A stretch of 42,518 nt of DNA. Source: Klebsiella phage vB_KpnS_IME279. The translations under genes were made by a program, and so were the position numbers. Below are positions 283-42,518 of the stretch, piece after piece. Positions within the stretch are counted from its first letter, which is position 1. Each line of letters begins with the position of its first letter. The notes beneath the pieces were generated by a model that had not been told where the DNA came from, did no database searches, and worked only from the letters and a program-made list of their open reading frames with translations. The stretch lies in the sequence record MF614100.1, one strand, 5' to 3'.

Positions 283-305
283 TGATAATTATGTGTGGAA
301 ATGGT

Positions 306-331
306 CGGGGGTTTTGGGGTTTTAACCCCCG
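306..331. other. Stem-loop CGGGGG(TTTTGGGGTTTTAA)CCCCCG
   Basis: 6-bp GC stem with a T4G4-like loop, immediately upstream of the predicted minus-strand promoter. Confidence 0.4.
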
Positions 332-362
332 GCAAAATCCCCGCCGTAACACTCAAAAAATA

Positions 363-546
363 CCCGTTACCGGAATGGCTGTAAGTTACTGAATATCATC
401 GGTAACATTGTCGGTGTAACAGTGTTACCTTTTTGAAACTTCGGAGCCACTGGGTAACGGTAACATAAATATATACCCCCTTTAGGGGGTATATGTTATG
501 TAACCCGTGACCGTTACCAGGAAATGTGACCGTTAAAAATCGTTAA
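363..546. repeat. Iteron-like cluster of GTAAC/GTTAC half-sites; candidate origin or operator region
   Basis: About 10 GTAAC or GTTAC pentamers in about 180 bp, against about 1 expected by chance. They include the tandem GGTAACGGTAAC and GGTAACATTGTCGGTGTAACAGTGTTACC. Confidence 0.6.
471..494. terminator. Perfect inverted repeat ATATACCCCC-TTTA-GGGGGTATAT. Likely terminator of the helicase gene, and possibly also a protein-binding site.
   Basis: 10-bp perfect arms. On the minus strand it is followed by ATTTATGTT, 40 nt past the helicase stop. Confidence 0.45.
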
Positions 547-2191
547 GATCATCAGCCCCGTCGTCCGGTTTATTGCCCCAGTCAGTCGGGCGCGGATCGT
601 TATCCTTTATCCCACCCAGGAGCGGGATCGCTTCGTTCATGGCGGTGAGCGTTTCGTCCCCGGCCATCTTGATCAGGATCTGCTTTTTGGTGGCATGTTC
701 AAAGGCGCGATGGAATTGCATCTTGTCCATCGGGTCGTCGGTCCCGGTTCGCGCCCAGTCCGATAACATGCCTTTGGTAAGTTTCGGCGTCCGGTAGTTC
801 TTTTCCTTTCTCGTCAGGTTGTACTCGTGGACAAACTGCGCCAGCCGGAGGGCGTTCTCCTGCGTCTTGCTCACCTTCTGCGCTGCGGCCTTCTCCTCGT
901 CCGCGCCTGCGTCCTGTTTGACCAGCTCCGGCTCGTTGATAACGATCAGCGTCGTGTCGTTGCTGCCGATGTGCCACGCGGCGGGGCCATCCTTCCCAGG
1001 TGCGGACATGCGCGCCATTGCGTCGCGTTTGGCTTTGACCAGCTCCGGCGGGAGTTTAACGGACTTCGTGCGGAATGCGCGCCGCTCCAGCATGGCGGAG
1101 CCTTTGGCTTTGGTGTGGTCGAAGATGAATAAATCGCGGTCCTTGTGCTTCGAGAGCGTGATCTCAAAGGCGGAGTTAGCCTTGAGGGCAGACGCCCCAC
1201 GTCCGCCGCGCGTCGCGTCCTTCCCGGAGTGGTGGAGGATCACCACGGCACAGTCCAGCGCCTCGGCCAGCTTCTGCGCGTTGGCTAACAGGATCGCGGC
1301 CTGGTCGTTGTTGTTCTCGGTGAATGGCTCGCCGCCCACCCAGCGCCCCGGCTCGTTGTCCTTCGGTTCGCGCCACTGCTCGCCGATCTTCTGGCCTGCG
1401 GAGTTGGCGCTATAGGTATCGATCACGACCAGCGCGGGCTTGTTACCCTCCAGCTCGAAGAACGGGGAGGCGTTGAATTTGGCCGCGAATTTCATCAGCT
1501 CGCGATCCCGGTGTAACGGTACGGGCTGCGCGATGATAAACAGGTTATCAAGCGGCCTGTTTTTGTTCTGGCTGTATACCCAGCCCGCGTAGCGCTCTTT
1601 CACGCCGTCGGCGTCCTCTGGCGCGAAGTACAGCACGGAGCCTTTACGGACGGGCAAACCCCCGAAGTGGTGGCCCTTCGCCACGCAGATAGCCATCTGG
1701 AGCGCGCAAAAGGTCTTTTTCGCCCCGGACTCGCCGACCAGGAAGCCCACGGACCGCTCCGGGATCAGGTTCTGGATCACGAAGTTGATAACACGCGGGG
1801 CGCTGGCCTCCCGGAGCTTGTCCAGAAATTCGTCCGGCTGCTCCGCCAGCATGGCCTTAATTTTCGCCAGGTCACGCTCGCGGCGCTCCTCGGTGGTCAG
1901 GCTGCGCGGCATCATGGCGGGCTGGTTGTCCTCGTCCAGCACCATGTCCCACTCGTGATCCGCTTCGTTTGTGCCGAAGTGGTAGAGCTGCACGTCCTCT
2001 AACGTCATGCCCTGCTCTGCGGCTGCGTCCTCGTCGATCGCCATCTGTCGGGCCAGCTCGTCCTCGCTCATTCCCGGCGAAGTCTCCAGCCATTCCGGCG
2101 GCTGCTCCAGAGGCGCGTCTCCTGGGAGGATCTGGTCGAGTAGTTCCTCTTTGCTCGGCTCCTGCTGGTCGTCTCTTTCGTCTTGGATCAT
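533..2191 (-). CDS. Replicative helicase, RepA/DnaB-like RecA-fold ATPase, with an acidic N-terminal region
   Basis: Walker A GESGAKKT, Walker B-like VVIDTYS and AVVILHHSGKD. SD AAGGAA precedes the ATG. The gene is flanked by iteron-like repeats. Confidence 0.7.
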   Translation of the reverse strand: MIQDERDDQQEPSKEELLDQILPGDAPLEQPPEWLETSPGMSEDELARQMAIDEDAAAEQGMTLEDVQLYHFGTNEADHEWDMVLDEDNQPAMMPRSLTTEERRERDLAKIKAMLAEQPDEFLDKLREASAPRVINFVIQNLIPERSVGFLVGESGAKKTFCALQMAICVAKGHHFGGLPVRKGSVLYFAPEDADGVKERYAGWVYSQNKNRPLDNLFIIAQPVPLHRDRELMKFAAKFNASPFFELEGNKPALVVIDTYSANSAGQKIGEQWREPKDNEPGRWVGGEPFTENNNDQAAILLANAQKLAEALDCAVVILHHSGKDATRGGRGASALKANSAFEITLSKHKDRDLFIFDHTKAKGSAMLERRAFRTKSVKLPPELVKAKRDAMARMSAPGKDGPAAWHIGSNDTTLIVINEPELVKQDAGADEEKAAAQKVSKTQENALRLAQFVHEYNLTRKEKNYRTPKLTKGMLSDWARTGTDDPMDKMQFHRAFEHATKKQILIKMAGDETLTAMNEAIPLLGGIKDNDPRPTDWGNKPDDGADDLNDF

Positions 2192-2206
2192 ACTGCTTTC
2201 CTTAAA

Positions 2207-2237
2207 TCATGGTAACGTTGTCGGTAACAATGTACCC
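2207..2237. promoter_or_regulatory. Operator-like repeat GGTAACGTTGTCGGTAACA, copy of the 15-mer at 401-415
   Basis: GGTAAC(A/G)TTGTCGGT occurs at both 401 and 2211 in the same orientation. The 2211 copy overlaps the predicted helicase promoter -10 (2229-2234) and TSS. Confidence 0.5.
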
Positions 2238-2257
2238 CCGACGCGTTACCCGGTCAA
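2229..2257 (-). promoter_or_regulatory. Candidate sigma70 promoter for the helicase gene, TTGACC-N17-TACATT
   Basis: The minus strand reads TTGACC gggtaacgcgtcggggg TACATT. The iteron sits at about +1. Confidence 0.45.
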
Positions 2258-2276
2258 CCAGCCGCCAGCAAAGAAA

Positions 2277-2305
2277 AAACTTTACATCATGGTTTCATTG
2301 TTCTA
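2277..2305 (+). promoter_or_regulatory. Candidate sigma70 early promoter TTTACA-N17-TAATGT
   Basis: Good -35, 17-nt spacer, -10. Divergent from the helicase promoter, upstream of the plus-strand early operon. Confidence 0.5.
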
Positions 2306-2335
2306 ATGTCGATAGCGAACAAACCGGAGGCATTT

Positions 2336-2991: not shown

Positions 2992-3750
2992 ATGTTTATC
3001 GCCGTGAAAAAACATAACAAGCCCGTATTTTTGAACGTGAACGAGATCAAGATCATCCGTGACGCGGAGCCGGATATCCATAACCCGGACTATGATCCGA
3101 AGGTCCACCCCGGCAGTGTGATTTTTACCACGACCGATCAGCACAGCACGTTAGAGCGATATTTCTCCAGCATGTCGCCGGAGGACCTGCGGGACGTGAT
3201 CAACGATGCCGCCGCCCAGGTTTACGCGGCCCCGATCTGCGACCGGATCATGAGCCTGGACAAATGCGTGGCCCGTCTGGCCCGGTCTATGGAGGACTGG
3301 CTGGAGCAAGCCAACACGCCGATCCTGAATCTGGACGGCATGACGCCGGAGGAGGCGGAGCGGTTCAAAGCGTCCATACGTGAGACTCGCGCCACGCTGG
3401 ACAGCATTCAGCCGCGCCTCGTCGCTGGTGGTTCGCCCGGTAAGCCCCAGCATTTTGTCGGGCTGGACTCCGACGTGTTTAACGTGGTTCAGCTCCTCAC
3501 GTCGCACGAGTGGGCCGAACATTGCACCAGTACGCAGTTAGGCCAGCGCCTGGAGTCGGCGATCACGGACCTGCATAACCACACCAGCGAGATCCGCCAG
3601 CGTAAGGACCGGGCGGAGGAGCTGCTGGCCGAAGTGTGGCACGAGTGGAATAACGACGACGCCACGCGGAAAGCACTCGGCGAGGATATGGGGAAAGTTA
3701 TCGGGAATTTTTTGTGGCCCGATGAAAATAAAACTTGTGAGAAAGAATAA
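2992..3750 (+). CDS. Hypothetical protein, 252 aa
   Basis: Long ORF in the AT-richer early region. ATG immediately follows the upstream stop. Confidence 0.7.
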   Translation: MFIAVKKHNKPVFLNVNEIKIIRDAEPDIHNPDYDPKVHPGSVIFTTTDQHSTLERYFSSMSPEDLRDVINDAAAQVYAAPICDRIMSLDKCVARLARSMEDWLEQANTPILNLDGMTPEEAERFKASIRETRATLDSIQPRLVAGGSPGKPQHFVGLDSDVFNVVQLLTSHEWAEHCTSTQLGQRLESAITDLHNHTSEIRQRKDRAEELLAEVWHEWNNDDATRKALGEDMGKVIGNFLWPDENKTCEKE

Positions 3751-4093: not shown

Positions 4094-4441
4094 ATGACAA
4101 CAATCATTTACGCCTTACCTAAGCGCACATCACACGCGCGCACGTCTCGATCCACGCCGCTGATCGCCCGCGACCGTTACAGCCTGATTACAGTCGGCGA
4201 GCTGGTGAAGTCCACGCCGAAAGGGAAGAAAATTATCCCGATCTGGTACAACAATCAGCGCCCCCAGTTTTTCGGGAGCGACTCTTATCACTTTTTCGAT
4301 AACGTCAAAGACGCGGCGGAGCATATCCGGCACGAGCTGGCCGGGACGTACAAACTTCTTAACGACCAGGCGAAGTTTATCGCGGAGCTGATCGAGGAGG
4401 CGGATCAGATCTACATTTCAGCCACGGATCCAACGGCATGA
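4094..4441 (+). CDS. Hypothetical protein, 115 aa
   Basis: SD GGAG precedes the ATG. Confidence 0.65.
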   Translation: MTTIIYALPKRTSHARTSRSTPLIARDRYSLITVGELVKSTPKGKKIIPIWYNNQRPQFFGSDSYHFFDNVKDAAEHIRHELAGTYKLLNDQAKFIAELIEEADQIYISATDPTA

Positions 4442-4659
4442 TCCCGGCGGACATTCAGCGCAAGGCTAAAAAGGTCCTCCAGCGCCACCTCGCCGGGGAG
4501 ATTAAGCCCCGGAAGCTGGTCGGCGGTCTGGGCCTCGCGCTGGAGGTTGGTTATCGCTGGCGGCTGCTGTCACGCGATAAGGGCCAGACGTGGGATCTCA
4601 TGTCCCACGAGAAGTACAACAAACTTACACGGGGCAAAAAGCCCCCTAAAATGAGATGA
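4438..4659 (+). CDS. Hypothetical small basic protein
   Basis: ATGA overlaps with both neighbours. Lys/Arg-rich. Confidence 0.55.
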   Translation: MIPADIQRKAKKVLQRHLAGEIKPRKLVGGLGLALEVGYRWRLLSRDKGQTWDLMSHEKYNKLTRGKKPPKMR

Positions 4660-42320: not shown

Positions 42321-42507
42321 TCTCGCCTCCCTTCGCTGCCGCCCTGCGCTCTGCGTCCATCTTCGCCACAAAGTCCCGGACGCCCTGCTCTGCGAGCGCC
42401 GTCGCCTGGTTATGGCTGTAGCCCTTGCGCCTGGCTATGTCGTAAAGCTGCTGGCGCATGGTCGCCCTTTGCTGCGGTCCTACATACATACGGGAGAGGT
42501 CCGTCAC
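42313..42507 (-). CDS. Hypothetical protein, 64 aa
   Basis: ORF adjacent to the circular junction. Weak SD. Confidence 0.45.
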   Translation of the reverse strand: MTDLSRMYVGPQQRATMRQQLYDIARRKGYSHNQATALAEQGVRDFVAKMDAERRAAAKGGENE

Positions 42508-42518
42508 GCTCGCCGCCT

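Follow-up and report, generated by a model that had tools for sequence, protein, structure and literature searches.

A repeat array beside a RepA-like helicase gene of Klebsiella phage vB_KpnS_IME279 as a candidate replication origin and autoregulatory operator

The genome of Klebsiella phage vB_KpnS_IME279 (record MF614100.1; its 42,518 nucleotides are the window analyzed here) carries a gene for a RepA-like helicase with short repeated sites just past its stop codon and on its promoter. This locus raises the question of whether the helicase recognizes these sites, and whether it could thereby both start replication at an origin of its own and control its own synthesis. We consider it rather probable that the locus is such an origin and autoregulatory system, served by an iteron-binding, RepA-like helicase. 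What was observed directly is the anatomy of the locus, how it is conserved, and that its sites co-vary with the C-terminal domain of the helicase. Helicase flanks were compared in 10 GenBank phages and 13 metagenomic contigs, and the layout of the locus was compared in 20 relatives from two genera, Sortsnevirus and Murrayvirus. A scan of IMG/VR gained only three further loci, all of which agreed with the layout. A literature search found no paper on the replication origins of Sortsnevirus or Murrayvirus.

Repeated sites at both ends of the helicase gene

The helicase gene occupies positions 533-2191 on the minus strand and encodes a protein of 552 amino acids that matches the RecA-fold Pfam family AAA_25 (88.6 bits against a cut-off of 27). 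Since GTAAC and GTTAC are reverse complements, they constitute a single motif, GTWAC. Just past the helicase stop codon (533-535), ten GTWAC sites start at 346, 366, 385, 402, 416, 424, 454, 460, 500 and 513, within 172 bp (346-517) in which about 0.5 would be expected. The extended form of the site is approximately TGTWACC or GGTWACA. The genome average is 2.26 GTWAC per kb, and the array is the sole 200-bp window of the genome with at least 4 copies (Poisson p ~1e-10 against the genome 5-mer frequency). In addition, 10 of the 40 genomic copies of the hexamer GGTWAC lie inside the intergenic regions on either side of the helicase gene. The GTAAC/GTTAC array proposed in the initial annotation was thus confirmed, as the single such cluster genome-wide. 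The number of sites falls within the range of 6 to 12 known from SaPI-type origins, and their enrichment, together with their co-variation with the helicase C-terminal domain, makes them candidate origin iterons.

The 15-mer GGTAACRTTGTCGGT was found at 401-415 and at 2211-2225, with no other match in the genome even at 2 mismatches (0.12 expected by chance from shuffled sequences), in agreement with its earlier description as a repeat of both helicase gene ends. The copy at 401-415 is held within a second site palindrome, GGTAACATTGT / ACAGTGTTACC, at 401-429 (inverted repeat I5). At 453-518, inverted GGTAAC sites form the outer arms of a composite palindrome (inverted repeats I2, I3 and I9) around a core at 471-494, ATATACCCCC/GGGGGTATAT, which consists of a pyrimidine arm, a TAAA center and a purine arm. 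This core is the perfect 10-bp palindrome noted initially, now placed within a larger nested inverted repeat. Folded as single-stranded DNA, the palindrome reaches -18.7 kcal/mol (z = -4.3). Inverted clusters of GTWAC sites flank this center, in which GC arms enclose only 4-8 AT base pairs, and the composite palindrome is proposed as the center of assembly and melting.

G-runs and A-tracts at 297-345 make up an imperfect inverted repeat (I1), which lies at the distal end of, and within, a module that is swapped between phages. A stem-loop described earlier at 306-331 does exist, but its folding energy is unremarkable (z = -1.45). Comparable phased G-run/A-tract repeats or 11-bp repeats were found in many relatives, although not in all.

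At the other end of the gene, a single strong sigma-70-like match, TTGACC-17-TACATT at 2229-2257 (minus strand), was found for the helicase, and its TTGAC -35 element is kept in all relatives. Three GGTAAC sites on the minus strand (2211, 2223 and 2245, within 2211-2250) overlap this predicted promoter. The GTWAC at 2245-2249 falls in the promoter spacer, and those at 2224 and 2212, the latter belonging to the 15-mer, lie over the expected start-site region. The 15-mer had been placed on both the -10 element and the transcription start site; the second part of this placement stands, but the -10 element itself is free of the repeat, which is located 4-18 nt downstream of the predicted -10 hexamer. 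The helicase has one good sigma-70-like promoter, and the position of these sites in its spacer and over its expected start, with the motif of the phage's own array, fits the autoregulatory operator suggested initially; the three sites are candidates for that role.

Repeat motif and helicase C-terminal domain vary together

From its acidic N-terminal region, the helicase continues through an ATPase core and a linker to a predicted winged-helix C-terminal domain, and it ends in an acidic tail. Among 24 homologues, the Walker A sequence GESGAKKT (K158/K159), E192, D258, H320/H321 and R328/R331 are invariant. These residues fit the motifs of the RepA cluster, which comprise the Walker A lysine, a motif 1a glutamate, the Walker B aspartate, a motif 3 histidine and an arginine finger (PMC8965321). 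RSF1010 RepA (1g8y) was the sole match in a PDB sequence search with the helicase, and a Foldseek search returned RepA, RadA, Rad51 and DnaB at E ~1e-6, with RSF1010 RepA among the best structural matches and highest among these in sequence identity (~22%). The full-length model was mediocre (predicted local distance difference test score, pLDDT, of 60). When the C-terminal domain was modeled alone with AlphaFold2 (residues 436-530), the pLDDT rose to 85.6 and the order H-H-H-beta-beta was obtained, that of a three-helix, two-strand winged helix, and all top Foldseek matches of this domain, none of them significant, were winged-helix domains (MCM4, Cdc6, ORC2, IclR, MarR and DtxR). From these models and from the divergence between phages sortsyn and ST231 described below, the predicted winged helix was assigned to residues ~442-517 (641-868, minus strand), with a predicted recognition helix at residues 490-503 (KMQFHRAFEHATKK; 683-724, minus strand). 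The helicase family is phrog_2850 in PHROGs, without an assigned function, and some records are misannotated. In KMB41 (L004/L013) the helicase is labeled "cobalt-zinc-cadmium resistance protein," and in IME_EC2 (L007/L011) it is split into two coding sequences, probably by a frameshift error.

The repeated motif differs among the relatives. GTWAC is found in most phages, TTAAC or GTTAAC in IME_EC2, sortsyn, P0005 and P0008, and ATAAC(A) in ST231 and P0022. In all 20 relatives, the motif class of the array matches that of the promoter. Consistently, the 75 nt that precede the helicase start contain 2-4 occurrences of each phage's top enriched array k-mer, where 0.1-0.4 are expected.

Two natural exchanges link these motifs to the helicase. 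IME279 and the metagenomic contig P0008 (locus L022) share 97-100% identity over 2992-2335 and again leftward from 285 for 2.2 kb, but only 40-85% identity across 2330-286, which is exactly the promoter region, the helicase gene and the array. The exchangeable module therefore spans 287-2330 and contains promoter with operators, helicase gene and array, without any other gene, and its exchange switches the motif from GTWAC to TTAAC. A narrower exchange was found between sortsyn and ST231, in which the flanking genes and helicase codons 1-430 are 90-100% identical. Divergence is confined to patches in the promoter region (42-65% identity), C-terminal codons ~436-530 (45-67%) and the array (35-47%). 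Within the helicase, only the C-terminal domain is thus affected, and the motif is TTAAC in sortsyn and ATAAC in ST231.

The same association was seen in Mantel tests of 17 phages. Promoter k-mer content was correlated with the distance between C-terminal domains (partial r = 0.46, p ~2e-4), and more weakly with that between the adjacent residues 1-430, which comprise the N-terminal region and ATPase (partial r = 0.27); its correlation with array content was r = 0.74. A genome-wide scan for homologous positions at which both ST231 and IME_EC2 are unique among the compared Murrayviruses recovered nothing beyond the promoter region, C-terminal domain, array and a gp04-like gene. Within the predicted recognition helix, F-x-R-A-F is present in GTWAC and ATAAC phages, and F-F-H-A-F is present only in TTAAC phages, which stem from two otherwise separate lineages; residue 496 is accordingly Arg in the former and His in the latter.

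Where the initial annotation had left the binder of the array as either the adjacent helicase or some other protein, these results favor the helicase, as the motif of array and promoter alike shifts along with its predicted C-terminal winged helix. Physical binding of the helicase to the sites is strongly suggested by these sequence comparisons, and the co-variation makes it very probable that the C-terminal domain is the part that reads GTWAC.

Conserved layout and rival explanations

The elements past the helicase stop codon follow a common order in all the phages and contigs compared. Two or three sites are followed by the palindrome, beyond which a tandem run of two or three sites, in many cases spaced by 7 bp, points the other way. 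Next come a spacer, further sites, a WWTCAW-N4-TTA box, one or two sites that are often accompanied by G-run/A-tract repeats, and finally a conserved box and a small open reading frame (ORF). The central palindrome has a 5' arm of pyrimidines, a TATA-like center and a 3' arm of purines. In its 15 distinct sequences, positions 3-8 from the center are 100% complementary, and C:G and T:A pairs interchange through double, compensatory substitutions. The polarity of the arms (5'-pyrimidine, 3'-purine) is constant in 471-494 and in loci L002-L023, with the variants CCCCC, CTCTCTC and CCCTCTC. The WWTCAW-N4-TTA box was found in one orientation, 125-140 nt past the stop codon, in 18 of the 20 phages, against a background of 0.05-0.2 per kb. 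In IME279 it lies in the middle of the array (ATTCAGTAACTTA; 382-394, minus strand). The box resembles the consensus for IHF and is a candidate IHF site; the strict IHF consensus is satisfied in four relatives, but not in IME279.

An equivalent design with unrelated motifs accompanies helicases that are only 32-35% identical. In Serratia phage Smarc2, all ten AGGGAT/ATCCCT sites of a 4.2-kb locus lie directly before or after the helicase gene, and a large pyrimidine/purine palindrome lies downstream of it. After the helicase gene of MED16, GGATTAT sites surround TATATCCC-TATA-GGGATATA, and in AAM37 the helicase gene is followed by five CAAAAC sites, a palindrome and three GTTTTG sites. By these sequence comparisons, the design appears to be widespread across several phage genera. 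In Kc237 (L002; 1-234 and 40861-40897), the distal array is replaced by a second palindrome and ~75 nt that are identical to the post-helicase region of the unrelated phage Kc166B (L024 3112-3241), and both phages come from one study, in which strains of Kosakonia cowanii were the isolation hosts. The distal array of Kc237 looks like a recombinant or dual element.

Several observations weigh against an origin that is recognized by the helicase. No DnaA box (TTWTNCACA) was found in the region, and neither GC nor AT skew, both of which track gene orientation, carries an origin signal. The AT-rich center measures merely 4-8 bp, far below typical unwinding elements. The annotated relatives Kc237 and Sortsne, which are P22-like podoviruses without a DNA or RNA polymerase, encode a primase, a DEAD-box helicase, Erf, an exonuclease, SSB and an XRE regulator. 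IME279 likewise carries Erf, exonuclease and SSB genes, and recombination-dependent replication through their products could lessen the need for an origin. The winged-helix assignment is a call from predicted structure, since the Foldseek matches of the C-terminal domain did not reach significance (best E 0.08), and Pfam and PDB sequence searches with the C-terminal and N-terminal domains gave no match. As the C-terminal domain adjoins the array, part of its co-variation with the sites could be simple linkage. Finally, we know of no RecA-fold, 5'-3' ring helicase for which self-loading has been described so far.

Some of these observations would suit a purely regulatory role, in which the C-terminal domain would bind both clusters, and the sites would serve as operators, as a roadblock or as a titration sink for the helicase gene and for the leftward operon downstream of it, with replication starting elsewhere or by recombination. 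The lack of an origin signal in GC skew and the recombination genes are consistent with such a role, as are the overlap of the sites with the helicase promoter, the promoter-like element of the next gene just past the array (282-254), and the site that adjoins the conserved box in some relatives. However, at least ten sites inverted around a structurally conserved palindrome, together with an IHF-like box, far exceed the needs of an operator, and the closest site is ~65 bp upstream of the -35 element of the downstream promoter. Further, the design recurs directly after the helicase gene in distant phages, and in SaPIs it is the origin (PMC9371898). We therefore consider a purely regulatory role unlikely. 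It is also quite improbable that another phage or host protein binds the repeats and that the C-terminal domain co-varies with them through linkage only. The C-terminal coding region would be co-inherited with the array that it adjoins, and several other small genes do vary between ST231, IME_EC2 and their relatives. The promoter sites, however, lie 1.3 kb away across a stretch of 90-100% identity and nevertheless switch along with the C-terminal domain, which provides independent evidence against mere linkage, and the module swapped between IME279 and P0008 holds no alternative gene. Individual candidates were rejected as well. A divergent 151-amino-acid neighbor differs by one residue between IME279 (GTWAC) and P0008 (TTAAC), ST231 and KMB41 differ in motif but share an identical XRE regulator, variants of the hypervariable gp04-like gene cross motif classes, and an ORF56-like gene fails to follow motif class.

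An RNA or structural role, with the palindrome as a terminator or stabilizer of the helicase mRNA or the repeats as a packaging (pac) signal, is highly improbable. The core hairpin is followed by ATTTATGTTA and has a weakly terminator-like score on the minus strand, but Murrayvirus relatives keep the palindrome without the U-rich tail, on which ground an intrinsic terminator was rejected. A terminator would also leave the promoter sites and the motif switches unexplained, and no Rfam family matched within 1-2700. For packaging, it can be said that the records of related phages (Kc237, Sortsne and IME_EC2) start in the array region. These records are, however, circular or permuted assemblies opened by convention, and the terminase genes lie ~5 kb away, outside the swapped module. 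In IME279 the last 24 nt (42495-42518) repeat nt 1-24, and a minus-strand gene with its start at 46 runs on from the other end of the record; this overlap identifies the record as a circular assembly with a k-mer overlap, of a genome of ~42.5 kb. Physical genome ends or a pac site at the array were rejected on these grounds.

Proposed mechanism, neighboring genes and implications

In the model of origin and autoregulation that we favor, the C-terminal winged-helix domain of the helicase would recognize GTWAC, and the inverted clusters on the arms of 453-518 would dock helicase assemblies head-to-head. The small TATA-like center, or an extruded cruciform that leaves the sites double-stranded, would provide the opening, and bending of the origin DNA would fall to the IHF-like box and A-tracts. 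The helicase would then load itself, encircling single strands, without a separate initiator or loader, and would recruit the phage primase and a host polymerase, possibly via its acidic tail. Bound to the three promoter sites, it would repress its own synthesis. We infer origin activity of the array from its architecture and from its likeness to SaPI Rep/ori (PMC9371898), and likewise infer self-loading and self-repression by the helicase. The tail, PRPTDW...DDLNDF (residues 533-552; 536-595, minus strand), has P533, T536, D537, W538 and F552 invariant, and the pattern PxxTDW...DF is found too in Kc166B and MED16, whose helicases are 32-35% identical. It resembles the phenylalanine-ending acidic tails of T7 gp4/gp2.5 and E. 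coli SSB, a likeness that points to a possible role in bringing in a polymerase or some other partner.

The closest functional analogue is the SaPI Rep/ori system. SaPI Rep has a C-terminal winged helix and requires no loader, and 6-12 penta- or hexanucleotide iterons lie directly downstream of rep, inverted around a center (PMC9371898). The phage system shares with it the C-terminal winged helix, predicted here, and short iterons directly downstream of the helicase ORF, and its inverted site clusters resemble the SaPI arrangement apart from the nature of the center. The SaPI motor is AAA+ (SF3/MCM-like, 3'-5'), whereas the phage motor has the RecA fold of AAA_25 and is RSF1010 RepA-like; since the phage motor is not AAA+, the helicase is an analogue of SaPI Rep and not a member of its family. 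The SaPI center is an AT-rich tract, in contrast to the GC-armed palindrome of the phage with its TATA-like middle of 4-8 bp. Operator copies on the promoter of the helicase gene itself are a feature of the phage system, in contrast to SaPI.

In phage P4, binding sites lie in two separated clusters, ori and crr. The crr cluster is a replication enhancer, whereas the second cluster of the phage studied here lies on the promoter of its helicase gene. P4 alpha is a helicase with a C-terminal winged-helix origin-binding domain (PMC4889955), and like the phage helicase, as predicted, it uses this fold for short repeated sites. It is a fusion of a DnaG-type primase and an SF3 helicase, however, without sequence similarity to the phage protein. 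The origins of SV40 large T antigen and papillomavirus E1 carry inverted pair arrangements of pentanucleotides around a central element, on which two helicase rings are assembled, and T antigen represses its own early promoter via the same sites. The likeness to the phage locus lies in these inverted pentanucleotide sites around a center and in the self-repression by T antigen. Initiation by double hexamers has been described (PMC9894130). These are eukaryotic viruses with SF3 AAA+ motors, and their origin-binding domains are nuclease-derived rather than winged helix (PMC4889955).

The array departs from classical iteron plasmid origins in its sites of 5-7 bp, which are in mixed orientation, often 7 bp apart, and without a DnaA box. 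In iteron plasmids (pSC101, F, P1 and R6K), a winged-helix initiator binds the origin repeats and also inverted copies at its own promoter for autorepression, and IHF sites are common. Their repeats, however, are direct, ~17-22 bp long and in helical phase, they have DnaA boxes and a long AT-rich unwinding element, and the initiator is not a helicase. Such plasmids have been reviewed elsewhere (PMC4980987, PMC10797057).

The closest solved relative of the motor is RSF1010 RepA (1g8y, ~22% identity in structural alignment), with which Walker A and B, the motif 3 histidine and the arginines are shared. RSF1010 RepA is loaded at oriV after a separate protein, RepC, binds iterons and melts the DNA (PMC8965321). 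It has no DNA-recognition domain, whereas the phage protein appears to join both roles in one chain. According to a survey of double-stranded DNA virus replication, fused origin-binding domains are typical of SF3, and SF4 helicases are stand-alone or fused to a primase (PMC4889955). Self-loading via a fused origin-binding domain has been assigned to AAA+ helicases of SF3 and SF6 and to SF2 viral helicases (PMC4889955, PMC9371898). We regard as evenly balanced the broader proposal that a RecA-fold ring helicase of the RepA/DnaB class, expected to move 5'-3', is its own origin-recognition protein and loads itself at a double-stranded origin via a fused winged helix, with the palindrome as a new melting or cruciform center and the motif variants as a recognition code.

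The surroundings of the array required some revision. Bases 1-2700 of IME279 are 98.3% identical to Escherichia phage sortkaff, whose species is Sortsnevirus IME279. An ORF at 82-249/282 (minus strand) encodes a conserved small protein with a C-terminal membrane segment (VIKFPSRKARGRT...); it is annotated in Sortsne, Lumpael and IME_EC2, with no annotation in sortkaff. Because this ORF is a conserved gene, the intergenic region, initially taken as 47-532, shrinks to 283-532, or ~250 bp as in the relatives. The sites at 69-85, once counted with the array, were dropped. The three sites at 70-97 lie in or beside the small ORF and remain invariant across motif classes in the relatives, and they were rejected as part of the system. 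Where the ORF ends, the three GTWAC at 70-101 make up a small hairpin, GTAACG-GTTT-CGTTAC, which is kept in Sortsnevirus-type relatives and is probably an unrelated RNA hairpin.

The promoter-like element before this ORF, TTGAAA-17-TACTAT (282-254), ends 4 nt ahead of an in-frame GTG at 249, a position which suggests that the small-ORF mRNA is leaderless in Sortsnevirus-type phages. A ~25-nt box (CTTTRCATCAYG.TTTCAWTG) is common to both intergenic regions, at 264-292 and 2278-2306 (plus strand), and is kept in all relatives regardless of motif class. The copy at 2281 provides the -35-like TTTACA of the rightward operon, and the copy at 264 faces the array and could drive transcription across it. 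In the rightward direction, the gene two downstream of the divergent promoter (2992-3750) is mosaic and hypervariable, with N-terminal modules that reassort independently of all else examined. Farther along the rightward operon, a gene at 4438-4659 encodes 73 amino acids, and its homologues in related contigs match Pfam ParE_like, so that this virulent phage may carry a gene for a toxin-like protein.

If the model is correct, it would supply a testable origin and initiator for Sortsnevirus, Murrayvirus and more distant relatives. It would also mean that a motor of the RepA/DnaB class is able to carry its own origin-binding domain, and would raise the question of how 5'-3' rings assemble from a double-stranded site of inverted iterons. 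The natural swaps of domains and sites are matched protein/DNA pairs for the study of winged-helix specificity and for orthogonal phage replicons. The GTWAC, TTAAC, ATAAC and AGGGAT (Smarc2) variants would then supply a ready recognition code.

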